This document shows positions 3,454-62,010 of a DNA stretch of 64,000 bases, in pieces (the stretch's first letter is position 1; each line of letters opens with the position of its first letter). The translations under genes were made by a program, and so were the position numbers. Below the pieces are notes generated by a model. It was not told the DNA's origin. It saw nothing but the letters and a program-made list of their open reading frames with translations, and did no database searches. The stretch lies in NCBI GenBank assembly GCA_030390025.1, contig CM059431.1:129024001-129088000 (forward strand). Reading direction: 5' to 3'. This DNA comes from Squalus acanthias. Lineage: Eukaryota.

Positions 3454-3569
3454 TGTAGAATTCGCAATTATCGCGATTTGATTAATAAGGAGAAAACACA
3501 AAGTTTCGTTCAAACAGCTTTTATTTCAGCAGAATGCTGTCAGGTTTAAATTGGACACAAGCAGCCTGT

Positions 3570-3632
3570 AAAATGGCCGCCGCACCTCGTGACAGAACAT
3601 TCTAGACTTTTCAACAGGCAGACAAGATGGCG
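3570..3632 (+). promoter_or_regulatory. Two YY1-like motifs in U3
   Basis: AAAATGGCCGCC (3570-3581) and CAAGATGGCG (3623-3632); both retained in the diverged solo LTR (57522-57533, 57471-57480). Confidence 0.45.
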
Positions 3633-4027
3633 TTCCAATACACATTTTTGCAAGATCGATAACGATTCAGCACAGTGAAGATAATACACGAGACATTATG
3701 GGTTTACAGTATAAACATAGATACTGAAATCGGTCTCCCAGGTACAAAGGAAAGCCATTGCACCGAGTAATCAAGGGCCCATCCAAAGGACATTAGTATG
3801 TAAACTCCCAACGGCTCTACGATGAGAGAGCCGTTAGCAGGTAGTTATACAGGACACTTGGAAGCCCCAAACCCCTCCAGGGAGAACACCGACCGATTTA
3901 ACAATGGGAGAAGTATTAACAGGTACTCAAACATTCATGAGTAGCCCCGAAACCCATTAAGAACGGAGATCACCCATACAGGACATTTGGGCGCCAAACC
4001 TTAAACAAAAGAATGGACATTATAGTC

Positions 4028-4059
4028 GGGCGGGAAACGGAAGATTTTTGCACTATAAT
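4028..4059 (+). promoter_or_regulatory. Putative LTR core promoter (GC box + TATA-like)
   Basis: GGGCGGG at 4028-4034 and GCACTATAA(T) to 4059; same motif pair and similar spacing on the minus strand of the solo LTR at ~57042-57073. Confidence 0.55.
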
Positions 4060-4275
4060 TGCAGGCCCCAAACCGTCCACTCTCTCTCTTGACTCTTGCC
4101 TCTTGCTCGTTTGCTGCTTTTATCATCGTGGCTGCTCCTGTGTTTTATCCGGTCGATTCGTAACCTCGTGGCTGCTCCTGTGTAAAAGACTGTTGAACTT
4201 TCTGATCCGTTCGGATCTACCTCGTGTCGCGTAACGAAGACCTATGTTGGTAACTGGCAGCGGAACCAAAGGCCC

Positions 4276-4325
4276 GAGATGAGATGAGATGAGATGAGAT
4301 GAGATGAGAGGAGAAGAGAAGAAGA
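4276..4325 (+). repeat. (GAGAT)6-GAGAG-(GAGAA)2 microsatellite inside the LTR
   Basis: Read directly; the 3' LTR copy lacks the GAGAG unit. Confidence 0.9.
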
Positions 4326-4665
4326 CCATATCCATCGCCACGGTCAGTAAATCCCGACCGCGCCTGTAGGTCGATCAGCCAAGTCTTCTCGACAGGAAGT
4401 TTTCTTCGTTAAACTTTTAACAAGACATATTGCATCAACGATAACTGGACTGTGCAAACACATCGTATCAGTGATATTGACAACGGGACTCCTCAACTAA
4501 ACTGTGAAGTCAACCAACAGAGGTCTTCACCACAGCGGACGGTCCAGCCGACTAGCCGAGCAGCAGAAGCAGTAAACAAGTGGGACCAGGAGATCTCCTG
4601 ACCAACACGTGGGTGCTGCGGTGAAAAACATCCGATCAGCTATTCGGGATTTCTCCGAGTTATTA

Positions 4666-4680
4666 CGAGTGGTGAGCATG
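4666..4680 (+). promoter_or_regulatory. Putative major splice donor G|GTGAGC inside the LTR
   Basis: CGAGTGGTGAGCATG; GGTGAGCAT is conserved in both diverged solo LTRs (minus strand, ~56467-56475 and ~60619-60627). Confidence 0.55.
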
Positions 4681-5134
4681 AGTCTCGAGATCCTACGAAG
4701 CTAGTTTTAGGATAGATATTGATAGGGGAGGGTTTAAAGATTAAGGATATTTGTAATGTGTGCCCTATTTACGTTGTGCTGGTCGTTCCTCGTTTCCCTA
4801 AGAGTGATTATAACCGTTTGTAAGATTGTACTGTCATTAATCTGTGCGTATGACATGTATTTCATAATTTTAAGTATCATGCAATAAAGATTTTCCATTT
4901 CGTACCATTCAAACCAAGTCTACATGAGTTTTATCTCCATTACTGCTCTCGCATCTAAGTCCAGTGTCTAGAACCGTAAGGGAGAGTGATTCGAACCACT
5001 CACAGGGGTGTCTAGTGTTCCCAGACTGGCTGGAGACCAGGCCTAGACCCGCACTGACATACAGGCTGCACAGAGCCGCGTGAATCTCACAGGCTACGAG
5101 ACACGCAGGGTCAGGAGAGAATCCCTTACAGAAA

Positions 5135-6946
5135 ATGGCGACCGCGGCAGGACACTGGCAGCGAGAGGGTAGTGTGTTAGATTTTGGAATGACTGTACGA
5201 AATGTTATGCAGGAAAAGATAGCGGATTATGTGTTTGGGAAGGTTAATCTAACTAAAAAGTGGATAAGTGAGTTGTTAGCGGATAAGAGCCCACTAGAGG
5301 CAGCTGAAAGGTGGACTGATAGTAAGGAGCATAAAAAGGCAGTTGAGAAAGCAGTCTGGCTTATGTGCTACAAAAGGCAGGTTCAGATTTCAAACCAGAC
5401 CAATACAGCGCTAACAGCTCGAATCAAGCATTTAGAGGAGGAAATGGAGGAGAAGGTTTCTGGAGGGGAGGTGCTCATTAAGAGTTTAAATGAGTTACGC
5501 CAGGAAAGCCAGGAAGTCTCCAGTTACCTTAAAACAAGGGTAGAGTATCTCGAGTGCCAGATCACTGAAGCAAAATTGAACGAGAGTAGGATGAAGGAAA
5601 GATGTAACCGCCAAGCTGCCCAGATAAGAACTCAGGAAGAGAGCTTAATGGGGGTTAGGTCGGCGTATAAGTTGGCCCTTGAGGATAAGTTTCAGGGAGC
5701 CGACCATAGCGCCTGCCAAAAAGAGATAGAGAGCCTCAAAAAGGCCGTGAATAATGCGAACGGCATGGTGTGCCTTATCAATCCGTCGGCGCGCCAGCCG
5801 CTAGTAAATGAGAGATTTAGAAATTCCCCACCAAGTAAAGCAGAAGAAGTAGTAGCCACTGCGCCCTCCGCGCCACCCAGCTATTCAGAAACCTGGGTTA
5901 GGGAGGAAGCAACGGAAGAAACAAAAGAGCCCGTTGAAAAGGAAGTAGAAAAGGGATCGTTGTATCCAGTAACGGGGATTAAAAGGGGCCCAAGCAGAAA
6001 CGGTGGGGAAGAACCGGGGGATCTCCTCGGACAGCTGGTGTTGCCTCACAGTTCACATCAGCTGAGAGCCATGATAAACCACGTAAGGAAGCTGACCGAG
6101 ATAGACGACCCTTCCGTACATTTCAGGGAAGTTGAGCAAGCCGCAGCCATTAACGGCTGCGATGATGGGGAGACAGCAAAAATGCTGCTGTTCTCATTAG
6201 ACAGCTCGGTCCTTCAGTGTCTCTCAGGCGAGAGCAAGAGGGGAAATAAAAGTTATGAGGAATTGAAAAATGAGGTCCTAGAAGTAGTGGGGGCGAACGA
6301 CGGAGGTCCGTTTGCTAGAGTGGGACAGACAGTGCAGATGGAGGGAGAACCCCCGAAGGTTTTTGCCGACAGGCTGTGGCCAGTATATGAGCGCAGCTGT
6401 CTAGGTGCGCCCGAGCGCGAAGATGTGGAAGGCGCCGCTTTAATTCATTGGCTTAGGTGCATAATAGCCAACAGTTTACCAGCCGTTAGAGAGCAGGCAA
6501 AAGCCTGGTTCGATCCCAATGACCTCAACCTTACGGAAGAGTCGGTCTTGAATCGACTCACGTTAGGTTACCGTAACATAAGGGGTATGACGACACGTCC
6601 CTTTAAGGGAAGAGTACATGAGGTACGACCCGCAGCCCCGGCTCAAAGAGAGTGGCATCAGGAGGGTAATCGCGCCCCACAGGCAAGTAATGCCTGTTAC
6701 GGGTGTGGGAAGACAGGGCACTGGCGCAAGCACTGCAGGAACCCTTGGAAGGATTCCAAGGATAAAAATCCCGCGGTCCGAGCCCAGGCGCCTGTCCCGC
6801 CTAAGGAAGCAAAGGCACCCACCTCTCCCGAAGACCTCGAAGCAGTGTTAGGAGTCATGCGCAAGATGGTTTTGAATGCGCGTGGACAGGTGGCGGTCGC
6901 AACCGGCCCCGTAGGTGCCGCAGGACCGTCTAATAGTGCCCCATGA
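5135..6946 (+). CDS. gag: Gag polyprotein (603 aa)
   Basis: Open ORF right after the LTR; N-terminal coiled coil, PSAPPSY late motifs (5864-5884), CCHC knuckle CYGCGKTGHWRKHC (6695-6736). The start could be the downstream ATG at 5189. Confidence 0.92.
   Translation: MATAAGHWQREGSVLDFGMTVRNVMQEKIADYVFGKVNLTKKWISELLADKSPLEAAERWTDSKEHKKAVEKAVWLMCYKRQVQISNQTNTALTARIKHLEEEMEEKVSGGEVLIKSLNELRQESQEVSSYLKTRVEYLECQITEAKLNESRMKERCNRQAAQIRTQEESLMGVRSAYKLALEDKFQGADHSACQKEIESLKKAVNNANGMVCLINPSARQPLVNERFRNSPPSKAEEVVATAPSAPPSYSETWVREEATEETKEPVEKEVEKGSLYPVTGIKRGPSRNGGEEPGDLLGQLVLPHSSHQLRAMINHVRKLTEIDDPSVHFREVEQAAAINGCDDGETAKMLLFSLDSSVLQCLSGESKRGNKSYEELKNEVLEVVGANDGGPFARVGQTVQMEGEPPKVFADRLWPVYERSCLGAPEREDVEGAALIHWLRCIIANSLPAVREQAKAWFDPNDLNLTEESVLNRLTLGYRNIRGMTTRPFKGRVHEVRPAAPAQREWHQEGNRAPQASNACYGCGKTGHWRKHCRNPWKDSKDKNPAVRAQAPVPPKEAKAPTSPEDLEAVLGVMRKMVLNARGQVAVATGPVGAAGPSNSAP
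5136..5153 (+). promoter_or_regulatory. Primer-binding site, tRNA-Arg(UCG)-type
   Basis: TGGCGACCGCGGCAGGAC is the reverse complement of ...GTCCTGCCGCGGTCG-CCA, the 3' end of vertebrate tRNA-Arg(TCG) as I recall it; lies 5 nt after the LTR. Confidence 0.8.
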
Positions 6947-7330
6947 CTAGAACCAGCACAGCCCGTCTACCTGTGTCCGCTCAGCTATGATGCGTGGAGG
7001 CGACCTGTGGTGGAGATGGAGGTAGAGAAACAGAAAGGCAGTTATTTGTTGGACACGGGAGCTTCTTGCACCATAATCCATACAGATGACCCTTTTGACT
7101 CGCCGCTATCTACCAAGGTCCCATTCACGCTAGCAGGGTTCACAGGGAAAGAACAGGCTGGCACGTTTTCCCTCCCGCTATCCATTCGTTTAGGAACACT
7201 TCGCCTTAAGTGGAAGTGTATACTGATGGCATGGCAAAAGGGGGGTGGAAGAGGTATTCTCGGGTCCGATCTCCTAGCGGGACACGGGATCCTCGTGGAC
7301 CTCAGAAATCACTGTCTCTGGGGGGGCTAA
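6947..7330 (+). CDS. pro: Aspartic protease, in frame with gag behind a UGA stop
   Basis: LLDTGAS (DTG at 7052-7060) and GILGSDLL; same frame as gag with no stop between 6947 and 7327. Confidence 0.88.
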   Translation, partial: LEPAQPVYLCPLSYDAWRRPVVEMEVEKQKGSYLLDTGASCTIIHTDDPFDSPLSTKVPFTLAGFTGKEQAGTFSLPLSIRLGTLRLKWKCILMAWQKGGGRGILGSDLLAGHGILVDLRNHCLWGG

Positions 7331-10300
7331 AGGTGAAAAAGGCGAGGTAATGGTAATTCAAGGGGAGGAAGAAACAGGGGTCCTGTGTACCGTACAGCCA
7401 TCCGGAGGCTACGACCTCAGGCTTATGGTCGCAGATGTCCCAACGGACATGCAAACGTACGTGTCAGATGACATGCACGCGTTTGCAACCCACAAGCACG
7501 ATTGTGGGAGGGTGGTCGGGTTTGAGGTCAGCGTAGATGGGGACCCCATGACCCGACCCCAAAAGCAGTATAACTTCCCCAAGGAAGCAGAACCCGATAT
7601 GGAGGCAGCAATGTCTTCCTTGGTGCAGCAGGGCGTGTTGAGACCGATAGCCACACACGTGAACTCCCCATTATGGCCGGTTAGGAAGCCGGATAATTCG
7701 TGGAGAGCCACGGTGGACTACAGAGTCCTTAACAGTAACATTCCCACCTGCGCGCCTACAGTAGCAGCAGTTGCTGACCTAATAGGGAGCATCCCAGCGT
7801 CCGCGACCACGTTCACGGTGCTGGATATCTCGAACGGTTTTTGGTCCATCCCGCTGCGGCGAGAGGACCAGTACAAGTTTGCCTTTACGTTTAAAGGGCA
7901 ACAGTACACGTGGAACTGTTTGCCACAGGGTTTCCACAATAGCCCCAGTATTTTTCACCAGTGTATGGCAGGAAGTTTAAAGGAGTTTAGTCAGCCCAAT
8001 CAGATAGTCCAGTATGTGGATGATTTGCTCCTATTTACGGACTCAAGGGAGGAGCACGGACCACTACTGGACGAGTTATTGGAGCTGTTAGCGAGAAAGG
8101 GTTTTAAAGTAAACCCAAAGAAAGCACGTATCGGTCAGCAGGAAGTAAAATTCCTGGGACTGACCCTACGCGCTGGGGAAAGAGCCATAGACAAAGCAAG
8201 GAGGGAGTCGGTGCAAGAATTACCGATTCCCAACAACGTAAGGGGTGTGAGGTCCTTCTTGGGACTGACCGGTTACTGCAGGGATTTTATCGAAGATTAT
8301 GCGGCCACAGCGGCGCCGCTCCTCCGACTCCTCCATAAGGGAGTGGAGTGGTCTTGGGACGAGGGCTGCCAAGCAGCCTTCGAGAAGTTAAAAAGGGATC
8401 TGCAGACTGCGCCAGCCTTAGGGGCCATAGATGGGGGGAAGGAGTTTTTCCTGGAGGTAGCTGCCAGCGGGGACAGCTTAAGCGCCGTGCTGCTCCAAGA
8501 GCGTCACGGCAAGCTGAGGCCGGTTGTCTATTCATCCAGGGTATTAACGGATGTGGAGAGAAGTTTTTCCAATTGCGAAAGGCACCTTTTAGCCACGCAT
8601 TGGGCTGTGAAAAGATCAGCGATCTTCACAGGGCTCTCTCCCATCACTCTCCTCACACATCACACACCAACTAAGATGCTTCTGGATGGGAGGATTAAAG
8701 ACGGGACCGTAAGCAGCGCACGCATTGCGCGTTGGACCCTTCTTCTCTCCCAGTTGGATCTTAGAGTAAAAGGTCTTTGCGAGCCCAGGCTTGCGGCCAA
8801 TTTGGTATACCCCGGTACAGCCCACCGGTGTTCGGTGGAAGGGGTGTGGGACGTCAACATAGGTTTACGGGCCGGGATACATCCCACTGGGCGCGAGATT
8901 TATGTTGATGGCTCTAGCACAGTATCTGCTGGCGAGCGACTCACAGGGTGTGGAGTTTATGACCCTGCGGCAGACCTTGCCCTGGCGATCAAGCTCCCTA
9001 GCACCATGAGCGCGCAGCAGGCTGAGCTGTCTGCCGTGGTGTACGTGGTGACCCACCCAGACGTTTTCCCAACCCCATACACGATTTGCTCGGACAGTAT
9101 GTTCACCTGCAATTCGTGTACGGAATACCTGGCCATTTGGTCCCGCCGCGGATACACCTCCGCGGACGGGCGACCTTTAACGGTAAAGCCCTTGCTGGAA
9201 AAGATCTTAGCAGCAGCAGTAGGGGAGGAAGGGGAGATTTTCATCCATAAGGTGAAAGCTCACTCCTCCGCAGAGCCCCGTGGGGAGGGCAACCGGCAGG
9301 CGGATGCGCTAGCCAGGGAGGGTGCCCGCGACGGCACTTTCTGGAACCCCTATAGGACCGGACCCATAGCAGCGGTCCGAGGCGGGGACGGGAATACCGG
9401 GAACACCAGGGTAGCATTGCCCCTAGACCTTAAGACCGTCCAAGCCCAGGATCCCGCCCTAAAAGCAGTCCTAAAAACGATTGCTGAGGGGAGGCAGGTA
9501 GAAGGTCCGTACAGTACGGCAACCCTCTCAGTTAAGGAAGGCATGCTGTTCCGCGGGGAGCAGTGGGTTGTGCCGCAGCAGCACAGGAGGGAATTCCTCC
9601 AGTTGGCTCACGAGGGACCAGGGGCAGGGCACCCCGGGCCCGAGGTTACCTGGCAACGGGTAGAGCAAGCGGGATGGTGGCCAGGGCTCAGGGAACAAGT
9701 CCGCGAGTTCTGCGCTAACTGTCTTGTGTGCGCTGCAAACAACCCAGACCCCCAGAAAAGGAAGGTGCCCATGGGACACGTAAGAAGGGTAGAGGGACCA
9801 TGGCAGTCGATACAGATCGACTATATAGGACCCCTGCCCACCACCCAGGGAGGTTATAAGTACTGCCTCGTCCTGGTGGATGTGTTTTCCAAGTGGGTGG
9901 AAGCCTTCCCTTGTCGAACAGCTACGGCACTGGGTACAGCAAAAATCTTGGTCCGGGAAGTGTTCTCGCGGTGGGGACTCCCCCGTTTTGTGGAGTCAGA
10001 CCAAGGGAGTCATTTCACCGGCCAGGTGATGCAGAACACCCTCATGCTTTTGGGCATTGAAGGGAAGTGGCACGTAGCACACAATCCCCAGTCATCCGGG
10101 ATTGTCGAACGTATGAACCGGACCCTGAAGGAGAAATTGAGGAAAGAGACTAGGAACTCGCCCCAAAAATGGGCGGAAGTTCTGCCTTTAGTCCTCATGG
10201 GGGTCCGGGCCAGTCAGTCAAAAAGTACGGGGTACTCCCCGCACGAGGTAATGACCGGCAGGCTCATGCGAACCCCCACCCATGTGCTAGCCCCGGTGCT

Positions 10301-11471
10301 CACTGAGGGTCAGCTTCAAGAGATCAGCAGGGACAAGTTCGCCCAAACTCTCTTGGAGCGCCTGAAGCAAGTTTATGAGCAGGCGGCTGGGAACATGGGA
10401 AGGCAGCATCAGGGCAATCGCTTGTTGCTGGAACCCCGCAAAACGCGGGAGTGGGAAGTAGGAGACCAGGTCATGGTCAGAAACTACGCCAGAGTAGGGA
10501 GTCTGGAACCACTGTATATGGGACCCTACAACATTGTAGACAAGGCGAGTCCCATGGTTTACGCCGTAAAAGTACCTCGGCGCACTAAGTGGTTCCACAT
10601 AAACCAATGTAAACTGTACCAGCCGGGTGCGCAAGGGAAAACTACAGGGGTAAATCCCGCCAATGGGAAAACACAGCCCCAGGTAGGACCACAAGGCACA
10701 CAGGCAGGCGTAGCAGCTTGCATCAGGGGAAGGGACATCCCGGACGATCATGCAGCGTTTTTCTGGAGTTGGGGGTTAGATGACGAAGAACCCAGGGTAC
10801 CCTGGTCAGATGAGGATAGTGCAGATGAGTATAGTGATGATGACGGGTGGTTCCTGAGGAACGGTCTGGGAGGATTGGGGCCGATAGGTAGAGATCCACA
10901 CGGGGTGGACACACAAGCTGCAGGTCCCGAGGACAGGAGGGAGGAGCTAGAGGAGGCAGGGCCAGCCGCTATAGGAGCACAGAGAGTACCAATGTGGTTC
11001 CCAGAGGGGTGGCCGCCCGCTTTGAACGTCCAGTCCTCAGGGGAGGCAGAGATCACGAGTGAAGGGCCGCCTGCTGGGCCGAGCAGGGCGGAGCCACGAA
11101 ATGCCAGCCCCGAGGTTAGGGAGGCGGAGTCAGCGGAGGCGGAGCCGGCGACTGTAATGGAACCCCAGGTCGTCCCGTTGGAGGTCTCGGAACCCGGTCC
11201 GTCCGTCACGGAACCCCCGCCCATAGCAACTCCCCGTAGGTCTAGCAGAGAACCCCAGCCCAGGAGGATGTGGTCATGTCCCCAGATTGCCCCAAGGCGT
11301 AAAATCCAGGTTAAGATAACCCGGGTAGAAACAGGCCACATCGCAGCAGTAACAGGCTGCGGCAGATCAGAGGAAAGGGTCAGCGCAGCAACAGGCTGCG
11401 GCAAATCAGAGGGAAGGGTCAGTGCCCTCCCACCGTCGGGAAGAGCTCGCAGCAGCCTTCTCAGAATTTAA
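7326..11471 (+). CDS. pol: Pol: RT, degenerate RNase H (tether), RNase HI, integrase, C-terminal extension
   Basis: LPQGFHNSP and YVDD (8013-8024); RH1 ~8445-8760; RH2 IYVDGS/AELSAV/SDS/GNRQAD ~8895-9330; HHCC from 9609; IDYIGP, SDQGSHF, SSGIVERMN, GPY. Frame is +1 to pro and open from 7326; first ATG at 7350. Confidence 0.95.
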   Translation, partial: AKGEKGEVMVIQGEEETGVLCTVQPSGGYDLRLMVADVPTDMQTYVSDDMHAFATHKHDCGRVVGFEVSVDGDPMTRPQKQYNFPKEAEPDMEAAMSSLVQQGVLRPIATHVNSPLWPVRKPDNSWRATVDYRVLNSNIPTCAPTVAAVADLIGSIPASATTFTVLDISNGFWSIPLRREDQYKFAFTFKGQQYTWNCLPQGFHNSPSIFHQCMAGSLKEFSQPNQIVQYVDDLLLFTDSREEHGPLLDELLELLARKGFKVNPKKARIGQQEVKFLGLTLRAGERAIDKARRESVQELPIPNNVRGVRSFLGLTGYCRDFIEDYAATAAPLLRLLHKGVEWSWDEGCQAAFEKLKRDLQTAPALGAIDGGKEFFLEVAASGDSLSAVLLQERHGKLRPVVYSSRVLTDVERSFSNCERHLLATHWAVKRSAIFTGLSPITLLTHHTPTKMLLDGRIKDGTVSSARIARWTLLLSQLDLRVKGLCEPRLAANLVYPGTAHRCSVEGVWDVNIGLRAGIHPTGREIYVDGSSTVSAGERLTGCGVYDPAADLALAIKLPSTMSAQQAELSAVVYVVTHPDVFPTPYTICSDSMFTCNSCTEYLAIWSRRGYTSADGRPLTVKPLLEKILAAAVGEEGEIFIHKVKAHSSAEPRGEGNRQADALAREGARDGTFWNPYRTGPIAAVRGGDGNTGNTRVALPLDLKTVQAQDPALKAVLKTIAEGRQVEGPYSTATLSVKEGMLFRGEQWVVPQQHRREFLQLAHEGPGAGHPGPEVTWQRVEQAGWWPGLREQVREFCANCLVCAANNPDPQKRKVPMGHVRRVEGPWQSIQIDYIGPLPTTQGGYKYCLVLVDVFSKWVEAFPCRTATALGTAKILVREVFSRWGLPRFVESDQGSHFTGQVMQNTLMLLGIEGKWHVAHNPQSSGIVERMNRTLKEKLRKETRNSPQKWAEVLPLVLMGVRASQSKSTGYSPHEVMTGRLMRTPTHVLAPVLTEGQLQEISRDKFAQTLLERLKQVYEQAAGNMGRQHQGNRLLLEPRKTREWEVGDQVMVRNYARVGSLEPLYMGPYNIVDKASPMVYAVKVPRRTKWFHINQCKLYQPGAQGKTTGVNPANGKTQPQVGPQGTQAGVAACIRGRDIPDDHAAFFWSWGLDDEEPRVPWSDEDSADEYSDDDGWFLRNGLGGLGPIGRDPHGVDTQAAGPEDRREELEEAGPAAIGAQRVPMWFPEGWPPALNVQSSGEAEITSEGPPAGPSRAEPRNASPEVREAESAEAEPATVMEPQVVPLEVSEPGPSVTEPPPIATPRRSSREPQPRRMWSCPQIAPRRKIQVKITRVETGHIAAVTGCGRSEERVSAATGCGKSEGRVSALPPSGRARSSLLRI
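11346..11423 (+). repeat. 39-bp tandem duplication in the Pol tail (AVTGCGRSEERVS / AATGCGKSEGRVS)
   Basis: Two adjacent near-identical 13-codon units. Confidence 0.85.
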
Positions 11472-11710
11472 AGGGGCCGCCCTGAGAACGGGCGGCACTG
11501 TAAAGTTATAGTTCAAGGTTAAGTTTTAAGTTTATTAGTTCAAGGTTAAGTTTGTAGTGTTTTAACAGATAACGATAAAATGATGGGAGTTTTAAGGCTA
11601 GGTTTAGAGGAAGTCTATTCAGCAAACGTTGAAGTTTACGTGAGGCGAGGTCAGGGGACCCGCTCACCCTTCACAAAAGCCAGAGACTTTTTGCGAGGCT
11701 GGCTACCTCA

Positions 11711-11727
11711 TTCTATCTGATCACAGG
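11711..11727 (+). promoter_or_regulatory. Putative env splice acceptor
   Basis: TTCTATCTGATCACAG|G, 13 nt upstream of the env ATG (11740). Confidence 0.45.
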
Positions 11728-11739
11728 AACCAAGGAAGG

Positions 11740-14091
11740 ATGGAACGACTTCTAGTATTGCTCGTGGCAATCGGATGTGGATTGGCCTATCGAGGCCACA
11801 CCAAGGATGTCGTGGTGTTTGGATGTTCCGGGGACACGGCCCCCATCGCGGTGGATGGGACCGGAAGACGGAAGGCAGAAGGGACCAGCACCTATTTCCA
11901 CAAGGGAAGGTGGCCAGGATGGCTGGGAACGAACTCAACGGAGTATTCCAGCACATCGGGGTTCGCCTACAAAGAGACTTCTTTAATGTGCCCCAAAGTA
12001 CGGATCATCGCACCCAGGATCAGCGTCACCGTCGGCAAACGGATTTGTTTGACCTGTAGTGGGGATGTCCCACTGAGCCGATGGTGGTGGCTGCGAAAGC
12101 TGAGCAAAACTATGAGGAACTCTTCGGTCGAGTGGGAACGACTGGGTAATAATACCCATCGGACAATTACGGGGACAGACGGACAAGTGAAAGTCTGTTG
12201 GGACAAATGGTGGGAACCGGATGAGGGGATTTATGTTTGTATGTGGGGGTCAAAGTACGTTTGCCCCAAAGGCATCTCCATATTTTTTATTAATCAGTGG
12301 CAGGATAACGGACAGGGGATGAGGTGGGATGCGAGCACCAGGGGGTGCGGAGCCCCATTCTCCCCGATCCCAGTAAATGCCACTGAGCTCATTACGCGCC
12401 CACGCAAAGCCCCGCCCACGATTCCGGTGGTTCTAACTGAGGAAGAAGGGTGCCCTAAAACTAGTAAGGGACCCGGGAACGGTTTGGTACTGGTCCCCAC
12501 AGACCAGATACTATTTCAGGGGGTACATTACGCGGTGGCCTCAGTGATTTTAAATCTCACTGAGGTACGGTTACCAGAGTGGTGCCCCAAAAAGACGGAA
12601 CAGTTGTATCAGGTCCTGTTGACCAAGATGTTCAGACAATTTTACGAGTTTGATTTTGCAGAAATTGATAAGACAAGTTTATACACCGCACCGCAGGAAG
12701 TTTTGGATCAAGTAGGGAGGCAAAGAAGGGGTTTGGTGAACGATGCGTTCACTGCTTTTAATACAGGGACATCTGTGGTCAACGCTCTAGACAGTGTGGA
12801 GCTGCAGACCCAGATTAATGGTTTAAAAACACAGTTAAAAGACATTCTAACAGATGAGAATAAAGTGGTAGGGTCAGGTCTGCATGAGGACCAAGCCATG
12901 ACTCTCCATTTAAAAGAGATTATAGCAGAGCTGGAGAAACATGCGCGTACGGTAAATGCCCTGATCAGGGAAGATCGGAATGCATCCGATCAAGCTGCGC
13001 AGAACGAGGTGTGCGTGCTTTACGGGGCGTGGTTACTGGGCGAGGGCCGCAGTAATCTGGAGGATTTAAAACAAGGTTTGGTTCCGTCCTGGATAAGTAA
13101 CAAACACCTGCGGGCGCTCCACCCTTTTCAGAACGCATTAAGTCCGTGCCAGCTCAGGCTAGCTTCAGAAGCTTACCCAGTCCCCGTGGACTGCGGACGT
13201 TCAAACCATACTATTATGGGAATAGTATTACGCATGCCGGTTTTGGGCAACACAGCAAAGCCCGCCCCGGTATATCGGGTAGAGAACATTGGTGTCATTC
13301 AGGGGGGAGCCCACATTCGTTATGCAGCGGTTCCACCTTACGTCATCCGCTGGGAGCAAACGATGACAGGTACAGATCTCTCTGGTTGTCGTGGCAGGGG
13401 AGCACACATAATACTGTGCCCCCAGCACTTGAATGCCTTTTTAACACCACAGTGCGGGTTCAGAACGGCTGGCGCCAAGTCCATGAATTGCACCATGGAG
13501 GCAATGGCACAAGATCATGTGCCTCCGCAGGTAGCATACATCGGGGGTGGAACATATTGTGTTACCACTGCAGCGCAACACTACCAGCATGGAAACCGTA
13601 GCCGGTGTCCGGTGAGTGACAGCAGTTTCTGTTTTAAACCCAGGGCTGAAGTTCAAGTAGCACAACAGCGAATTATCCCAATCCCTGAACCATCCACTGT
13701 TCATCTCACAGTAAAAGAGAATTTCACCGACTTGCAGCGATTTGTCGCGCATTTTGGATACCTCATTCCCCCTCTCCCTGAGCATTTAACCAAACTTCTG
13801 AAAGCCGTCGCGGTGTCACAAAAGCATTTTTATACATTAGAACAGAAAACTGTCGAAATTGGAACAGACATTTTGGACATAGTGGTTCCACCGTGGTGGA
13901 ATCTGTTCACCAATATTGAAGTGCCCTCATGGGTCAGAATAGCCTCCCACATTTTAGTCGTCTGTCAAGTGTTTATTGTAGTGTACCTATTGTTCATACA
14001 TTGTAAAAGAGACAAGCGCCTCACCAAGCATGAGAACACGGGAGAGTGGCGAGAACGTTACGTGCGCGTGCACGATGAGAGCACCGTGTAA
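11740..14091 (+). CDS. env: Envelope glycoprotein (783 aa): signal peptide, Ig-like domain, furin site, F-like fusion subunit, TM anchor
   Basis: MERLLVLLVAIGCGLA signal; RQRR|GL at 12718-12729 followed by heptad repeats; Cys-rich region; several N-x-S/T sequons; TM at 13939-14004. Confidence 0.9.
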   Translation: MERLLVLLVAIGCGLAYRGHTKDVVVFGCSGDTAPIAVDGTGRRKAEGTSTYFHKGRWPGWLGTNSTEYSSTSGFAYKETSLMCPKVRIIAPRISVTVGKRICLTCSGDVPLSRWWWLRKLSKTMRNSSVEWERLGNNTHRTITGTDGQVKVCWDKWWEPDEGIYVCMWGSKYVCPKGISIFFINQWQDNGQGMRWDASTRGCGAPFSPIPVNATELITRPRKAPPTIPVVLTEEEGCPKTSKGPGNGLVLVPTDQILFQGVHYAVASVILNLTEVRLPEWCPKKTEQLYQVLLTKMFRQFYEFDFAEIDKTSLYTAPQEVLDQVGRQRRGLVNDAFTAFNTGTSVVNALDSVELQTQINGLKTQLKDILTDENKVVGSGLHEDQAMTLHLKEIIAELEKHARTVNALIREDRNASDQAAQNEVCVLYGAWLLGEGRSNLEDLKQGLVPSWISNKHLRALHPFQNALSPCQLRLASEAYPVPVDCGRSNHTIMGIVLRMPVLGNTAKPAPVYRVENIGVIQGGAHIRYAAVPPYVIRWEQTMTGTDLSGCRGRGAHIILCPQHLNAFLTPQCGFRTAGAKSMNCTMEAMAQDHVPPQVAYIGGGTYCVTTAAQHYQHGNRSRCPVSDSSFCFKPRAEVQVAQQRIIPIPEPSTVHLTVKENFTDLQRFVAHFGYLIPPLPEHLTKLLKAVAVSQKHFYTLEQKTVEIGTDILDIVVPPWWNLFTNIEVPSWVRIASHILVVCQVFIVVYLLFIHCKRDKRLTKHENTGEWRERYVRVHDESTV

Positions 14092-14502
14092 TAGGAAAAT
14101 GGCGTCACTCCCGCTCGCCACGTGCGCCGCGGAAGTTTGTACTCATTGTAAATACGTTGGAAACTCGACATGTTTAAGAGTTGGGATTTGTTTACTTTGG
14201 TGATGGTGTTGATTGTTTGGTTTTGGGTTTTGTTTTTTCCTTTCCCTGAATAAAAGACAAATATACAGGTGATGCGTGAGGTATCGGCCTGGTTACGCCG
14301 GAAAGGAAAACAAGTGGTGTAAGTTTAAGGGCAAATGATGCCTACGGTGATATAAAATGTGATTTTCTTGGGAAATAAGGACGACACAGAGACCCTAGTT
14401 AAGTTAAAATTTATGGGATTAATTTACTGGATTCGGAGTGAAATCGAGATAAGATTGCTCACCACTGAGATTTTTGATACGATAAGCGGAGTTATTCGCA
14501 TC

Positions 14503-14514
14503 AACAGGAGGGAC
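14503..14514 (+). promoter_or_regulatory. Polypurine tract
   Basis: AACAGGAGGGAC abutting the TG of the 3' LTR. Confidence 0.65.
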
Positions 14515-16187
14515 TGTAGAATTCGCAATTATCGCGATTTGATTAATAAGGAGAAAACACAAAGTTTCGTTCAAACAGCTTTTATTTCAGCAGAATGCTG
14601 TCAGGTTTAAATTGGACACAAGCAGCCTGTAAAATGGCCGCCGCACCTCGTGACAGAACATTCTAGACTTTTCAACAGGCAGACAAGATGGCGTTCCAAT
14701 ACACATTTTTGCAAGATCGATAACGATTCAGCACAGTGAAGATAATACACGAGACATTATGGGTTTACAGTATAAACATAGATACTGAAATCGGTCTCCC
14801 AGGTACAAAGGAAAGCCATTGCACCGAGTAATCAAGGGCCCATCCAAAGGACATTAGTATGTAAACTCCCAACGGCTCTACGATGAGAGAGCCGTTAGCA
14901 GGTAGTTATACAGGACACTTGGAAGCCCCAAACCCCTCCAGGGAGAACACCGACCGATTTTAACAATGGGAGAAGTATTAACAGGTACTCAAACATTCAT
15001 GAGTAGCCCCGAAACCCATTAAGAACGGAGATCACCCATACAGGACATTTGGGCGCCAAACCTTAAACAAAAGAATGGACATTATAGTCGGGCGGGAAAC
15101 GGAAGATTTTTGCACTATAATTGCAGGCCCCAAACCGTCCACTCTCTCTCTTGACTCTTGCCTCTTGCTCGTTTGCTGCTTTTATCATCGTGGCTGCTCC
15201 TGTGTTTTATCCGGTCGATTCGTAACCTCGTGGCTGCTCCTGTGTAAAAGACTGTTGAACTTTCTGATCCGTTCGGATCTACCTCGTGTCGCGTAACGAA
15301 GACCTATGTTGGTAACTGGCAGCGGAACCAAAGGCCCGAGATGAGATGAGATGAGATGAGATGAGATGAGAAGAGAAGAAGACCATATCCATCGCCACGG
15401 TCAGTAAATCCCGACCGCGCCTGTAGGTCGATCAGCCAAGTCTTCTCGACAGGAAGTTTTCTTCGTTAAACTTTTAACAAGACATATTGCATCAACGATA
15501 ACTGGACTGTGCAAACACATCGTATCAGTGATATTGACAACGGGACTCCTCAACTAAACTGTGAAGTCAACCAACAGAGGTCTTCACCACAGCGGACGGT
15601 CCAGCCGACTAGCCGAGCAGCAGAAGCAGTAAACAAGTGGGACCAGGAGATCTCCTGACCAACACGTGGGTGCTGCGGTGAAAAACATCCGATCAGCTAT
15701 TCGGGATTTCTCCGAGTTATTACGAGTGGTGAGCATGAGTCTCGAGATCCTACGAAGCTAGTTTTAGGATAGATATTGATAGGGGAGGGTTTAAAGATTA
15801 AGGATATTTGTAATGTGTGCCCTATTTACGTTGTGCTGGTCGTTCCTCGTTTCCCTAAGAGTGATTATAACCGTTTGTAAGATTGTACTGTCATTAATCT
15901 GTGCGTATGACATGTATTTCATAATTTTAAGTATCATGCAATAAAGATTTTCCATTTCGTACCATTCAAACCAAGTCTACATGAGTTTTATCTCCATTAC
16001 TGCTCTCGCATCTAAGTCCAGTGTCTAGAACCGTAAGGGAGAGTGATTCGAACCACTCACAGGGGTGTCTAGTGTTCCCAGACTGGCTGGAGACCAGGCC
16101 TAGACCCGCACTGACATACAGGCTGCACAGAGCCGCGTGAATCTCACAGGCTACGAGACACGCAGGGTCAGGAGAGAATCCCTTACA
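14515..16187 (+). repeat. 3' LTR (1673 bp)
   Basis: By eye identical to the 5' LTR except +1 T in a T-run (~14958-14961) and one fewer 5-bp microsatellite unit; the lengths reconcile (1677+1-5). Confidence 0.97.
15940..15945 (+). terminator. Polyadenylation signal AATAAA in the 3' LTR (4883-4888 in the 5' LTR)
   Basis: GCAATAAAGATT; GCAATAAAGATT is also conserved on the minus strand of the solo LTR (~56253-56264). Confidence 0.65.
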
Positions 16188-19065: not shown

Positions 19066-22000
19066 TTCATTCATTCACGGGTTGTGGGCATCACTGGCAA
19101 GGACAGCATTTATTGCCCATTCCTAATTGCGCTTGAGAAGGTGGTGGTAAGCCATCATCTTGAACCGCTGCATGAGGTAAAGGTACTCCCAAAGTGCTGT
19201 TAGGTAGGTAGGGAGTTCCAGGATTTTGACCCAGCAATGATGAAGGAACAGCGATATATTTCCAAGTCAGGATGGTGTGTGACTTGGAGGGGAACTTGAA
19301 GGTGGTGGCGTTCTCATGCACCTGCTGCCCTTGTCCTTCAAGGTGATAGAGGTCGTGGGTTTGGGAGGTGCTGTCGAAGGCGAGTTTCTGCAGTGCATCT
19401 CGTAGATGGTACACACTGCATCCTTGGAGTGCCGGTGGTGGAGGGTGTAAATGTTTAAGTTGGAGGATGGGATACCAATCAAGCGGGCTGCTTTGTCCTG
19501 GATGGTGTTGAGTTTCTTGAGTATTGTTGGAGCTGCACTCATCCAGACAGGTGGAGAGTATTCCATCACACTCCTGACTTGTGCTTTTTAGATGGTGGAA
19601 AGGTTTTGGGGAGTCAGGAGGTGAGTCACTCGTCAAAGAATACCTAGCTTCTGACCTGCTCTTGTAGCCACAGTATTTATGTGGCTGGTCTAGCTAAGGT
19701 TCTGCTCAATGGTAATCTCCAGGATGTTCATGGTGGGGGTTTCAAATGATGCTAATGCCATTGAATGTCAAGGGGAGGTGGTTAGACTTTCTCTTGTTGG
19801 AGATGGTCATTGCCTGGCACTTGTGTGGCACGAATGTTACTTGCCACTTATCAGCCCAAGCCTGAATGTTCTCCAGGTCTTGCGGCATGCGGGCACGGAC
19901 TGCTTCATTATCTGAGCATTGGGAATGGAACTGAAAACTGCAATCATCAGCAAACATCTCCACTTCTGACCTTATGATGGAGAGAAGGTCATTGATGAAG
20001 CAACTGAAGATAGTTGGGCCTCGGACACTGCCCTGAGGAACTTCTGCAGCAATGTCCTGGGGTTGAGATGATTGGCCTCCAACAACCACAACCATCTTCC
20101 TTTGAGCTAGGTATGACTTCAGCCAGTGGAGAGTTTTCCCCCTGGTTCCCATTGACTTCAATTTTACTAGGGCTCCTTGAAACCACACTCGGTCAAATGC
20201 TGCCTTGGTGTCAAGGGCAGTCACTCTCACCTCATCTCTGGAATTCGGCTCGTTTGTCCATGTTTTGACCAAGGTTGTAATCAGGTCTGGAGCCAAGTGG
20301 TCCTGGCGGAACCCAAACTGACCATCGGTGAGCAGGTTATTGGTGATTAACTATCGCTTGATAGCACTGTCAGTGACACCTTCCATCACTTTGCTGATGA
20401 TTGAGAGTAGACTGATGTGACAGTAATTGGCCAGATTAGATTTGTCCTGCTTTTTGTGGATAGGTCATACCTGGGCAATTTTCCTCTTTGTTAGGTAGAT
20501 GCCAGCGTTATAGCTGTACTGGAACAGCATGGCTAGAGGTGTGGCTAGTCTAGAGCACAAGTCTTCAACACTGCAGCCAGGATGTTGTCTGGGCCCATAG
20601 GCTTTGCTGTATTTAGGGCACTCAGCCATTTCATGGCATTATGTGGAGTGAATCGAATTGGCTGATGACTAGCTTCTGTGATGGTGGGGGTCTCAGGAGG
20701 AGGCCGAGATGGATCATTTACTCGGCACTTCTGACTGAAGCTGGTTGCAAACACTTCAGCCTTGTCTTCAGCGTAGGTCCCTTGCAGTCAGAAGCAGGGG
20801 AACTTATAATGGGAAACAAAGAAATGGCAGACCAATTAAATACATATTTTGGTTCTACCTTCACAAAGGAAGACACAAATAACCTCCCAGAGATGTCAGG
20901 GAACATAGGGTCTGATGAAAGAGAGGAACTGAAAGAAATCAGTATTTGTAGGGAAATGGTATTAGGGAAATTGGTAGGATTGAAGGCCGATAAATCCCCA
21001 GGGCCTGATAATCTACACCCTAGGGTACTTATGGAAATGGCCCTAGAAATAGTAGATGCATTGCTGATCATCTTCCAACATTCGATGGAATCTGGAACAA
21101 TACCCATGGATTGGAGGGTAGCTAATGTTACCCCACTATTCAAAAAAGGTGGTAGAGAGAAAATGGGGAATTACAGACCGACATCGGTAGTGGGGAAAAT
21201 GCTAGAGTCCATTATAAAAGATGTAATAGCAGAGCACTTGGAAAACAGTGACAGGATCGGACAAAGTCAACATGGATTTACAAAAGGTAAATCGTGCTTG
21301 ACTAATCTACTGGAATTTTTTGAGGATGTAACTGGTAAAATAGATAAGGGAGAACCAGTGGATGTGGTGTATTTGGACTTTCAAAAGGCTTTCAATAAGG
21401 TCCCGCATAAGAGATTAGCATGTAAAGTTAAGGCACATGGGATTGGGGGCAAGGTATTGACTTGGATAGAGAACTGGTTGGCAGACAGAAAACAAAGAGT
21501 TGGAATAAATGGGTCTTTTTCCTAGTGGCAGGCAGTGACTAGTGGGGTACCGCAGGGATCGGTCCTTGGACCCCAGTTATTCACAATATATATTAATGAT
21601 CTAGACAAGGGAACTAGATGTAATATCTCCAAGTTTGCAGACAACACAAAGCTGGGTGGGCGTGTGTGCTGTGAGGAGGATGCCGAGAAACTCCAGTATG
21701 ATTTGGACAGGTTGGGTGATTGGGCAGAAGCATGGCAGATGCAATATAACGTGGATAAATGCGAGGTTATCCACTTTGGTGTCAAAAACGGGAAGGCAGA
21801 TTATTATCTGAATGGCAATAGATTGGGAGAAGGGGAAGTGCAACGAGACCTGGGTGTCCTTGTGCACCAGTCGCTGAAGGTAAGCATGCAGGTGCAGCAG
21901 GCAGTTAAGGCGGCAAATGGTATGTTGGCCTTCGTAGCGAGAGGATTTGAGTACAGGAACAAGGATGTCTTGCTGCAGTTGTACAGGGCCTTGGTGAGAC

Positions 22001-56064: not shown

Positions 56065-57643
56065 TGTAAGGGGTTACGGTTCGTAGGTGCCTAATACTAT
56101 TGCTTGCTCTGGTCTCCGGCCAGCCTTGTTGCAATAAGCACCTGTGAGTGGTTCGACCCACTCGCCCTTACGGTTCTGACACTGGACTTAGGTGCGAGAG
56201 CAGTAATGCAGAGAAAAACTCAAATAGACCCGGTTGAATAGTACGAAATGGAAATCTTTATTGCATAACGTCCAAAATCATGAAGTACATGTCATAGGCA
56301 CAAATTAATGACAGTACAAGTATACATACATTCATAAAACTTGGTCTAGGGTAATGAGGAACGCACAGCACATCGTAAAAAGGGGAACACATTATATTTA
56401 TCCTTAATAAAACCACCCTCCCCTATTAATACCTACACTAATCTAGATTTGTAGGATCGAGGAAACATGCTCACCACTCGTGATACTTCGGAGAATTTTA
56501 AACGAGGCACTCGGCTTGTTTCGCTGCAACACCTGACTGTCATGTGTTGGAAGGGGTCTCTGTACCCCACTTGTTTATCTTCTCTGCTCCGGCTAGCAGG
56601 CTGGGCTCCCCGTTGTCATGAAGAACTCGACAGTGCTCGGTCCCGGCTGTAGAACTCAAGGAAAAGTCTTTCTGGACCGACACCAGTTAGCCGGTAGACT
56701 TCAAAGAAGAGTCTTTGACCAGTTCATGCAGTAAACTGTAGAGTTCAAAAATGGTCTTTATATTTACGGGCGCGGTCAGGGTTTACTGACCGTGGCGGCA
56801 CGTGGATTCTTCTTCTTCTCTTCTGATCTCGTCTCGTCTCATCTCTTCGGGCCTTTGGGTCCAGAACACCGTTTACCGACCCTCAGGATGGTGCACCCGG
56901 TCACTGGCCTCCGTCGAGGTGACTCGTTCCAAAGTTCAAACGAATCAGCCCCGGGAGGATCAGAGGAATAAGAGCGTTCAGCAGCCAGCAGCAAGATAAG
57001 AGTCAAGAGTCAAGAGAGCGATGGACATTTGTTCACTATAGTTATAGTGCTGTGTTTTCCTTATCTCCCGCCCAATCTTAATGTTCATCCTTTGTAAAAT
57101 CTTGGCGCTCAAAATTCCCAGTATGGGGTGATTCTTGTTTGTAATGGGTTTCGGTAGCACCTTAAACTGGCCAACTACCCGCTAATGTTTTCCCCATTGT
57201 CGAACCGGCTAGGAGTCTCCCTGACTGGTTTTGGGGCCTCCTCGAATACTGACTTAATCACCCGAGAATGGCTCTCTCATTGTAGAGCCGTGGGGAATTT
57301 GCGTATTGATGTATCTGGATGGGCCTTCGATTGCCCAGTGCAATGGTCCTTACTTGTGCATGGAAAATGATTCCAGCACTTATATCTCTTGCTATTGTGT
57401 CGAATGCAGACAGGCTGCATCCTGTCTTTATCAGTGTTTGCTGCGTATTACTTATAAATGTTTATTCGAACGCCATTTTGTCTGCCCACTGAAAATTCTG
57501 GAAGCTTCTGCCACGAGGCACGGCGGCCATTTTACAGGCTTCTGTGTCCTGTTTAATCATGACAGCATTTCGTTGAAATAAAACTGATGAAACGAATCTG
57601 CTTTATCTCGTTATTTTGAATCGTGATAATTGCGAATTTTACA
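56065..57643 (-). mobile_element. Solo LTR (1579 bp), diverged relative of the provirus LTR
   Basis: Minus strand TGTAAAATTCGCAATTATCACG...CCCCTTACA, TSD AGCC (56061-56064, 57644-57647); colinear motifs with the 3454-5130 LTR. Confidence 0.92.
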
Positions 57644-59539: not shown

Positions 59540-62010
59540 CTGAAAGATGAGGGTGAACGAGGCCTCAGAGGATGCGGGTCTTCCAGAACAGAATCTCATA
59601 CCTGAACATGAGAGAGTAGCAGTGTATGGGAGGTACCACTTCAGCAGGCAGGCATTCACTGACTAAAGTCACCTGTTAAGCAAGAATTGGAGCCAAACAC
59701 CGGCACACGCACGGCACTGCCTGTGTTGTGAAGGTTATGGTGTCCCTCAGCTTCGATGCCATAGGCTTATTGCAGGCTGCAACAGGTAACATCAGCAACG
59801 TCAGTCAGTTTGCTGTCTATATGATCATCAGGCAGGTGACACATGCCTTCGTTGCAAAAAGACAGCTATACATGGTCTTCCCCTTAGAGGCTGCCGATCT
59901 GGAGAAGAGGACTTTCAGATTTGGCCACATCACTGGATTTCCCAGGTGCAAGATGTAATTGACTCCACACACGTTGCCCTGCATTGTCCCCTTCAAGATC
60001 CAGCCATGTTTAATAACAGGAAGGAGTTTCACTTCCTGAGCGTGCAGTTGATGTGTGATCACAGGGGATAATGAAGGCCTCGGCCCGGTTTCCCAGCACT
60101 AGTCATGATGCCTTTTTACTGTGGCAGTCCTCAACTCCCCTGTTTTCCACCCAGAGCAGTGGATGTCAGGCTGGTTCATTGGAGACAGGGGATATCCCCT
60201 CTACACCTGGCTCATGACTCCTGTCAGAACCCAGGCACAGACGCAGATACAATGAGAGCCACACAAGAAAAAGAGCTCCCCATGAACAAACCATAGGCAT
60301 CCTGTAGGGGGTGGTGTGGTAGGGGTCAGCCTCACCTCTGACTCAGTGAGCGGTTCAAATCGCTCCCACGCCACTGGTTCTAGACCTTGGACTTATTTAG
60401 GGGTTGTGAATAAAAATGCAGTAGACAACAGGTTCCGATGAAAGAATTTTGACTTTTATTAAAAGAAAAGGTAACAAACTTAAAACACACTTAACACTTA
60501 AACAGGTTGGGGAACACACGGTACAGGCAAGGGAGAATGACAATATACAAAAACCCTTATCCCTCCCAAAGATCCCACTTCTATCTAGCTAGGTTTTGGT
60601 TTCAGGAGATCAGGGATAATGCTCACCAAACAGGGGTTTTGACAGTGCGAAATCTAGCCAGGTGAGTTGATTGCGATTTTGAGGTACTCTCTTTTTGTCC
60701 TTTGGGGCCTGCCGTCCCCACATGGTACCGGTCTGTGAAATCTGCGATGGTGGTCTGGTCGTCGAGTTTTGTTGCGTTGGAGGCTTGTCGGGGCGGTACC
60801 TTCTGGGGCAGGACCGTGGGTTGAGCGATGCCGACTCGCTCCCAGCCTCCAGTGACCTTGGCTAGTGGCTGCTAGTGCTAGACCGTGTGCTGAGCGATGC
60901 CGACTCACTCCCAGTGGCCTCAGCTCTAGCCCTTGCCTGGCCTTGTCTGTCCTTGCCTCCAATCTCGCCCCGGGTCTGCCTCGTGGCCTTGTTGCTTCTC
61001 TCCTCCTCCTGCTCATGTCGTGTGGCTTGTAGTGTCTTGCTGGAACTTGCTGCAACTAGAACAGAGCTGAGAGAGACTTTCTTGGGGGATTAGGCCCTCA
61101 ATTATACTGTTCAGACCCTTTGTCTTTTTCGCGCCAAAACCCCTTACTAAATCAGTTTCGTGTTGAAGTGATTTAGGTTTCAGTTGAGGCCTGTTCATTC
61201 CATTGTCTTAGTTTTGCGGGCTTGTTAAGTTTTGATGGCTTTAACTTGGTGTTAAATTGTCCTGATGGCTTCCAATGTCTCCCATTTAGGCAGGGCCTTT
61301 ATCTACAGGCCAAATCTTGTCCCTATAGATACCTGGCTGATTGGTTTTTGATGAAGTAATGGCTGTACTAGATGTTTTATTGTTTACAGGCTTCTGGCAT
61401 CCTGTTTGGGCCTGGGGATATTCAAAAGGTGTCTTGAATTATTCAATTTTGGATGTGTTGTGAGGTATTGGGTGAGGTTCTTCCTCCTGCCAGGATTGCA
61501 GTGCAAACAAATTCCAGACAGCTTGACTCCAAAAGCTGTCCACTGCCTCGCCACACCCCTTCGCAAAGGTGTTTTTTATTTTCTATAGTCATTTTCAAAA
61601 GTCATTTTTTTCTCAGGGTTTTTCTTCCCTGATCTTTAAAATGTCCAAAACTGAGGTTTTTACCTCAAATCACTTCACTTATGTCCCATCATCCCAAATT
61701 CATAGGAAAAATCCAAAAATCACCCCTTTTAGGGTTCTATACGAATTTCTGGGGAATTTTGCGAAGCTTACAATCCTCAAACAAAAGTTCCAATGTCTGG
61801 ACCGCTCTGGAGGAGTCCTACAGTACAGTTCCGAGTGAGTCTCCAAATCTACCATCCAGAGAGACCAAGCCTAGGAGCTGCCACAGAAGGAACAACTGGA
61901 GGAGGACGATGAAGAAGAGGATGAGGAAGTAGAAGCTAATGAGGAAGACCAAGGCCGAGCAGTGCTGCCAGCTGCCAGAGGTGTAAGGCAAAAAATCATT
62001 GAAGAGAGAT
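59540..62010 (+). pseudogene. Degraded Harbinger transposase, split by a solo LTR
   Basis: KVMVSLSFDAIG..SQFAV, GFPRCK, IGDRGYPL, EQTIGI|LKQKFQCLDRSGGVLQY. Confidence 0.8.
60303..61772 (-). mobile_element. Solo LTR (1470 bp), more distant member of the same LTR group
   Basis: Minus strand TGTAAGCTTCGCAA...CCCCTACA; TSD ATCC (60299-60302, 61773-61776); shared U5 block and GGTGAGCAT; AATAAA on the minus strand at ~60455-60460. Confidence 0.85.

Follow-up and report, generated by a model that had tools for sequence, protein, structure and literature searches.

The window analysed here, a 64,000-nucleotide stretch of contig CM059431.1 from the 3.7-Gb eukaryotic genome of Squalus acanthias, contains an endogenous retrovirus (ERV) at positions 3454-16187. 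The subject of this report is a structured element at the U5 end of its long terminal repeats (LTRs), beside the primer-binding site (PBS). The two proviral LTRs (3454-5130 and 14515-16187) were 99.6% identical over 1,678 bases, had TG...CA ends and were flanked by a 4-bp target-site duplication (TSD), ATAT. Long, open gag, pro-pol and env frames lay between them, with Pfam domains for protease, reverse transcriptase (RT), RNase H and integrase. The solved structures closest to the proviral proteins were RT of murine leukaemia virus and xenotropic murine leukaemia virus-related virus (MLV/XMRV; E ~1e-71) and foamy-virus integrase (E ~1e-33). From the position of AATAAA (4885-4890), U5 of the 5' LTR was estimated to span about 4910 to 5130. 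The proviral family is very young, because all 40 scored genomic matches to the stretch 4900-5160 (out of 708 candidates) were 100% identical; together with the LTR identity and the open frames, these matches make the provirus itself look very recent. Two loci previously named as solo LTRs proved to be genuine LTRs of related families, each with its own TSD: 56066-57643 (family 2; TSD AGCC), which shares 72-80% identity with the proviral LTR, and 60303-61774 (family 3; TSD ATCC).

An earlier note, made from the letters of the window alone, had described a tRNA-like fold on the antisense strand of these three LTRs, consisting of a closing stem, a variable arm and a hairpin with a GTTCRANY loop. 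The listed stems and loop were present at those places in all three LTRs, and minimum-energy folds reproduced the stems. The closing stem pairs GTAAGGGA with TCCCTTAC in the provirus (4976-4983/5122-5129) and TGTAAGGG with CCCTTACG in the family-2 solo LTR (56066-56073/56165-56172), where the antisense hairpin GAGTG-GTTCGACC-CACTC occupies 56146-56163. The window copy of family 3 pairs GTGGTGTGG with CCACGCCAC (60311-60319/60366-60374), together with GGGTCAG/CTGACTC and the hairpin GAGCG-GTTCAAAT-CGCTC at 60348-60365. Folding z-scores were only -2.2 to -2.7, with 3-6 of 200 shuffles folding equally well. In the provirus, sense and antisense strands were alike in this respect (sense z = -2.56).

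Relatives collected from the same genome (80 short stretches and 66 loci) modified this description in part. In the hairpin, the replacement of T-A by C-G that was first noticed between single LTRs held family-wide, with UA in 23 and CG in 13 of 41 proviral copies. The closing stem of the family-3 solo LTR had been called fully replaced, and the stem does covary; however, as read from the listing, the CCACGCCAC arm occurred in none of its 99 family-3 copies, and these carry CCACGCCCCT (~30 copies) or CCACTCCCTT (~65 copies) in its place. The GTGGTGTGG/CCACGCCAC pairing is therefore an alternative register arising from a private substitution and not a feature of the lineage. In family 3, the LTR terminus AGGGGGTGG instead has CCAC(N)CCCCT as its partner, at the same position as the proviral closing stem, such that the stem reads GTAAGGG/CCCTTAC in families 1, 2 and 4 and AGGGG(C)GTGG/CCAC-CCCCT in family 3. 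The variable arm differs in size, from ~70-120 nt in families 1, 2 and 4 (~70-100 nt in families 2 and 4) to a single hairpin of ~20 nt in family 3. A 'CGTTC' variant of the hairpin was seen in 1 of the 99 listed family-3 copies. In a family-3 side lineage (L125 and L126, contig C1), the hairpin has four base pairs (GACG/CGTC), one base fewer per strand than GAGCG/CGCTC, and the middle arm has a different sequence with its pairing retained.

The element is abundant. The compact U5 end of family 3 gave at least 3,495 pattern matches (10 in controls), while PBS-LTR junctions ending in TGTAAGGG followed by a base other than A (families 2 and 4) gave at least 1,294 (0 in controls), and family-3 PBS junctions gave 50 (0 in controls). 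Of the 41 proviral junction copies, 36 retained the sense heptamer TCGAACC of the hairpin unaltered, as did 16/17, 9/9, 14/20 and 3/4 copies of sets picked irrespective of the motif. It persists even though two deep clades differ in closing stem, variable arm and spacer. Around it, the provirus and the family-2 solo LTR share all but about 4 of the 50 positions of the 5' module (4957-5006). Sampled 31-mers of the U5-PBS region (4880-5200) were also found, at shares of 0.3-0.78, in sequencing runs under seven coded organism labels, none of them recorded as RNA. More than one species may therefore carry this element or something closely related to it.

A second helix, absent from the earlier note, brackets the PBS. 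This U5-leader stem joins 4961-4968 to 5151-5158, its leader arm comprising the last three PBS bases and five leader bases. It reads CCAGTGTC/GACACTGG in families 1, 2 and 4, CCAAGGTC/GACCTTGG in family 3, CCAAAGTC/GACTTTGG in six further loci (L079, L098, L104 and L144-146) and CCAAGT/ACTTGG, with each arm one base shorter, in L092 and L106. Read along the sense strand, the outer 5' arm is followed by the linker, the inner 5' arm, the complement of the T loop and the variable loop; the inner 3' arm, at the LTR end, then leads through the spacer to the PBS and the outer 3' arm. Reviews describe a matching arrangement for other retroviruses.

Pairing was assessed at 18 pairs in an alignment of 41 proviral junctions in sense orientation, of which 22 came from families 2 and 4, 18 from family 3 and one from the window. 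Of 738 cells, 93.6% were paired, compared with 82.8% when partners were shuffled (a level equal to the observed one was reached in 0 of 500 shuffles) and 29-47% when the arms were slid. Changes on both sides were found in eight pairs: three in the U5-leader stem (91.5% of cells paired), four in the five shared pairs of the closing stem (96.1% paired) and one in the hairpin. RNAalifold independently recovered seven of the eight U5-leader pairs and four closing-stem pairs. The covariation proposed from three LTRs therefore persists in a larger alignment, and since the stem changes are compensatory between clades, they imply selection on pairing.

The tRNA likeness itself fared less well. ARAGORN called no tRNA genes in the window, Rfam gave nothing at gathering score, and a permissive Rfam scan of 60280-60400 (E<=10) returned two chance-level hits, neither of them to the tRNA model. 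In the provirus as in the two solo LTRs, the supposed T loop consists of 8 nt (GTTCGAAT, GTTCGACC and GTTCAAAT), as opposed to the 7-nt loop closed by G53-C61 required of a tRNA, and there is no D arm. Local alignments of the three antisense elements to the tRNA-Arg and tRNA-Ser of the genome were at chance level, with 21-274 of 500 shuffles scoring equally and the lowest of these counts obtained against tRNA-Ser; descent from the primer tRNA was rejected on this ground. The element shares with tRNA genes and the tRNA-derived heads of short interspersed elements (SINEs; RF00005, ARAGORN) a GGTTCRA hairpin, resembling a B box or T loop, beside a terminal stem, and differs from them in its 8-nt loop, in lacking a D arm, similarity beyond the loop and any tRNA call. 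The resemblance is superficial, whereas the structure is real, conserved and covarying.

What the hairpin does match is the primer. The PBS is perfectly complementary to the last 18 nt of tRNA-Arg(TCG), CCA included. The 3' part of this tRNA had 426 genomic matches (0 in controls), mostly in 1.6-kb tandem units, and ARAGORN called tRNA-Arg(tcg) in all three loci scanned. Because the T arm of this tRNA is GCAGG-TTCGAGT-CCTGC, the sense heptamer TCGAACC (4991-4997) complements its positions 52-58 (GGTTCGA). The PBS-annealing part of the tRNA, positions 59-76, begins immediately after these bases. All lineages found carry Arg-tRNA primer sites in three PBS variants. The spacer between LTR end and PBS varies by lineage (GAAAA or GATAA; AAA in family 3; TAA or TAAA in family-3 relatives).

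Several further observations concern the primer and its surroundings. In L031-L036 (contigs C23 and C26), the tRNA-Arg(TCG) gene lies in long arrays of ~1.6-kb units together with tRNA-Ser(GCT). The PBS variants, ...GCGGCAGGAC, ...CACGAAGGGAC and ...GCGGCACGAG, occur within one set of LTR families (L041, L054, L057, L061 and L087-L124), which suggests switches between Arg-tRNA isodecoders, judging from the sequences. The spacer (5131-5135; also L087-L106 and L143-L146) is unusually long; were primer removal to take place at the RNA-DNA junction, trimming of the U5 end would need to exceed the usual two bases. Within the linker (C)TAGAACC (4969-4975), GAACC forms a second, shorter complement of tRNA positions 52-56, and AAGAACC is also present in U5 of an unrelated tRNA-Arg-primed ERV family (L127-L130). 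The sense loop AUUCGAAC (4989-4996) contains UUCG, equal to U33 plus the anticodon UCG of tRNA-Arg (loop CUUCGGA); this match may be a coincidence of the TTCGAA palindrome. Families 2 and 4 have GUCG.

We consider it probable (about 0.6) that the fold is the U5 part of the primer-binding segment in sense genomic RNA, an element of the type formed by the U5 inverted repeat (U5-IR), the U5-leader stem and the primer-activation signal (PAS). The antisense 'tRNA-like cloverleaf' is then most likely the mirror image of the sense primer-binding domain. Among the three options of the earlier note, the one in which sense TYGAACC pairs with primer GGUUCGA is the best fit, given the exact tRNA-Arg(TCG) PBS and the adjacency of positions 52-58 to 59-76, and it is now extended by the covarying U5-leader stem; for the motif, what is shown is complementarity. 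Under this proposal, two nested helices, the outer U5-leader stem and the inner closing stem, would flank the PBS, and the small hairpin directly after the inner 5' arm would present UCGAACC, the complement of GGUUCGA in tRNA-Arg(UCG). The hairpin would mask the motif before the tRNA anneals. Of TCGAACC, the 5-bp stem takes in just the final C in families 1 and 3 but two bases in family 2; a closed loop contains the remainder. When the tRNA anneals through its 3' end to the PBS, its T arm would open, and the freed 5' half of that arm could then pair with the U5 loop, held beside the PBS by the closing stem. This second contact might fix or activate the initiation complex for minus-strand synthesis. 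The helices, the covariation and the complementarities are observed, while the second tRNA contact and its effect are proposed by analogy.

The choice of strand is clearest for the U5-leader stem, which points to sense RNA. Its wobbles were 27 sense-only to 7 antisense-only, including a family-wide U-G in family 2, and the stem requires leader sequence that is missing from minus-strand strong-stop DNA. For families 1, 2 and 4, the alignment fold was also lower in energy on the sense strand (-30.4 versus -27.6 kcal/mol). A G+T-rich composition such as that of the antisense strand is in itself favourable to predicted pairing. A strand call from single-copy transitions was discarded, since the search pattern fixed one paired base and subfamily inheritance confounds the counts.

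Several results weigh against the sense primer-binding reading. In the hairpin and closing stem, wobbles were neutral (sense-only to antisense-only, 4 to 6 and 1 to 2). The family-3 U5 domain folded better on the antisense strand (-16.6 versus -9.5 kcal/mol), as did the whole family-3 stretch (-25.5 versus -17.3 kcal/mol), and single copies agreed. The central G-T of the closing stem on the antisense strand corresponds to A-C on the sense strand in the largest family-3 subfamily (~65 of the 99 copies listed). The earlier statement that G-T wobbles favour the antisense strand consequently holds for the window copy and one large subfamily, but is not general. For the inner module of hairpin and closing stem, the sense strand is preferred only as the more economical choice, because the wobbles are neutral and the energies mixed. 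RNAalifold on the 41-copy alignment did not return the hairpin as drawn, and the covariation comes mostly from one deep clade split with few within-clade events, so that independent events are few. Unrelated tRNA-Arg-primed ERV families sharing the PBS had TCGAACC in 0 of 7 copies. RNAcofold of viral RNA with unmodified tRNA-Arg predicted the PBS duplex and no loop contact in six of six copies. GGUUCGA is common to most tRNAs, and the motif therefore cannot covary with primer choice. T54, Psi55 and m1A58 are modified in real tRNA, and m1A58 cannot form a Watson-Crick pair. The comparable PAS interaction in HIV-1 (human immunodeficiency virus type 1) is itself described as disputed in passages of PMC1865047 and PMC3185550.

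An antisense role for the element is unlikely, although part of the evidence leans that way. Such a fold would form at the 5' end of minus-strand strong-stop DNA, behind the attached primer tRNA, or in an antisense transcript, where it would be read by a protein recognising tRNA shape or would keep U5 folded during strand transfer. It would account for the acceptor-like stem, middle arm and GTTCRANY hairpin on that strand and for the family-3 energies and G-T pairs given above, so that the earlier option of an antisense tRNA mimic retains one family that folds at least as well in antisense. However, the missing tRNA calls, the 8-nt loop without a D arm and the chance-level similarity speak against a tRNA mimic; the variable arm of 70-120 nt in families 1, 2 and 4 is not tRNA-sized, base composition alone promotes predicted antisense folding, and the U5-leader stem, whose wobbles favour sense, depends on leader sequence absent from strong-stop DNA. 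We know of no precedent for an antisense function of tRNA shape, a point not specifically searched for. We likewise regard it as unlikely that the inner module is selected on the antisense strand, with the first ~65-155 nt of strong-stop DNA serving as a second tRNA-shaped module, or that it provides TFIIIC/Pol III sites at thousands of LTR ends. If antisense selection did operate, the U5-leader stem would still belong to the sense strand, and structural codes would overlap on both strands. Considered separately, the idea that GGTTCGANNC serves as a B box for Pol III or as a site for TFIIIC, producing an antisense small RNA or a boundary element on thousands of LTRs, appears very improbable. 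Antisense GGTTCGAATCA, GGTTCGACCCA and GGTTCGAATCG do match 10 of 11 positions of the B-box consensus GGTTCGANNCC, in line with the earlier note, and the copies are numerous (at least 3,495 and at least 1,294). By eye, however, no A-box-like sequence upstream was common to the families, and no run of at least four T closely followed the motif on the proviral antisense strand; the distance from LTR end to motif varies from ~48 to ~140 nt, and the covarying stems would be left unexplained.

It is also improbable that the element is a functionless relic, whether a captured tRNA or SINE head or a read-through into the primer tRNA, that appears conserved through the youth of its copies. The T-loop-like motif, the cloverleaf-like outline, an orientation relative to the PBS identical to that of the primer tRNA and the many very young copies would fit such an origin. 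Against it stand the lack of significant similarity to tRNA-Arg or tRNA-Ser past the loop, the absence of CCA after the 3' arm, a 5' module far better conserved than LTRs of 72-80% identity, and the compensatory stem changes between clades. Least credible of all, and rejected here, is a kissing-loop dimerisation site formed through the loop palindrome UUCGAA. This palindrome is found in family 1 and most family-3 copies, and the linker holds a second one, TCTAGA. The usual location of dimer sites in retroviruses, however, is downstream of the PBS. Families 2 and 4 (at least 1,294 junctions) have the loop GTCGAA and the linker CAGAACC or TTAGAACC, losing both 6-nt palindromes and keeping TCGAACC, and it is because of this loss that the reading fails.

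Features of the U5 and primer-binding region and of the LTRs in the window
Feature	Position	Strand	Basis
5' LTR of provirus	3454..5130	+	TG...CA ends, TSD ATAT
U5 arm CCAGTGTC of U5-leader stem	4961..4968	+	pairs with 5151-5158, covaries, RNAalifold
Linker TAGAACC, single-stranded, conserved, between two stems	4969..4975	+	alignment columns 14-20
Closing stem, 5' arm GTAAGGGA, analogue of U5-IR stem	4976..4983	+	sequence, folds, covariation
Hairpin, sense GAGTG-ATTCGAAC-CACTC; antisense GAGTG-GTTCGAAT-CACTC ('T-arm' of the earlier note)	4984..5001	+	sequence
Variable arm, several hairpins in provirus	5002..5121	+	folds, alignment
Closing stem, 3' arm TCCCTTAC plus terminal A; as DNA, the U5 end for integrase	5122..5130	+	sequence, LTR ends, covariation
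Spacer GAAAA, LTR end to PBS	5131..5135	+	sequence
PBS, exact complement of 3' 18 nt (with CCA) of tRNA-Arg(TCG)	5136..5153	+	tRNA genes in genome
Leader arm GACACTGG of U5-leader stem	5151..5158	+	last 3 PBS bases and five leader bases
U5 domain of 3' LTR, no PBS after it	16033..16187	+	LTR-LTR identity
U5 domain of solo LTR 56066-57643 (family 2)	56066..56172	-	sequence and fold
Compact U5 domain of solo LTR 60303-61774 (family 3)	60303..60378	-	sequence and fold

Elsewhere in the window, another repeat is present in three copies (19074-20433, 45382-46766 and 58155-59446; ~73-95% identity). Other repeat families occur as well, and there are long inverted repeats such as 21482-22204/32767-33489, whose arms are 96% complementary.

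The proposed primer-binding element most closely resembles that of avian sarcoma-leukosis virus and Rous sarcoma virus (ASLV/RSV), for which U5-IR, U5-leader and U5-TpsiC structures were reportedly described by Cobrinik, Aiyar, Leis and co-workers; PMC3185550 cites Aiyar 1992 and Morris 2002. As in ASLV, the 3' arm of a U5 inverted repeat coincides with the LTR end and so overlaps the end used in integration, a second stem links U5 to the leader across the PBS, and a U5 segment of ~7 nt, immediately within the inner stem, complements the TpsiC loop region of the primer. Four features of that type were found here, namely an 18-nt PBS, a U5-leader stem, a U5 inverted repeat at the LTR end and a TpsiC complement, the last at the level of complementarity only. 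The differences are that ASLV/RSV use tRNA-Trp and this element tRNA-Arg(TCG), that the complementary motif here sits in its own 5-bp hairpin, that the inner stem encloses variable arms of 25-120 nt, and that the spacer from LTR end to PBS is 3-5 nt. In an LTR element outside the classical retroviruses, Tf1, a U5-IR-like stem-loop is said to have been found necessary for initiation by Lin and Levin in 1998. Tf1 shares the U5-IR-type structure but primes itself, whereas a tRNA is used here. The tRNA-like element (TLE) also places a tRNA-resembling feature beside the PBS; it is a sense-strand mimic of the anticodon arm, bound by LysRS, while the resemblance here is to the T arm and on the antisense strand only.

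The PAS of HIV-1 is specific to tRNA-Lys3, where its partner is the T stem's 5' strand (~48-55). The target here is positions 52-58, the near-universal GGUUCGA, and because of this the motif cannot select the tRNA. The likeness lies in a U5 motif upstream of the PBS that complements the T arm of the primer; in HIV-1, in work attributed to Beerens and Berkhout and in Ooms 2007 (PMC1865047), pairing within an extended PBS or U5-leader stem masks this motif in the free RNA, and masking may occur here as well. Passages of PMC1865047 and PMC11181671 describe an 8-nt U5 motif of HIV-1 that is complementary to the TpsiC arm, masked by pairing and regulates initiation, with its release raising initiation; a passage of PMC11181671 places such an element in all retroviral genomes. 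For RSV, a proposed interaction between U5 RNA and the TpsiC loop of tRNA-Trp, described as needed for efficient initiation, is cited in a passage of PMC3185550. As the second tRNA-U5 contact is still debated for HIV-1, a large and recently active ERV family offers a natural comparison, and its compact family-3 domain (~125 nt) would be easily probed. Genome scans call for caution, since on the opposite strand a primer-contact element can pass for the T arm of a tRNA or the B box of a Pol III promoter. Thousands of copies in several diverged lineages keep a 7-nt T-loop complement beside covarying stems, which, for a virus that is primed by tRNA-Arg and distant from the model retroviruses, lends comparative support to the general design.

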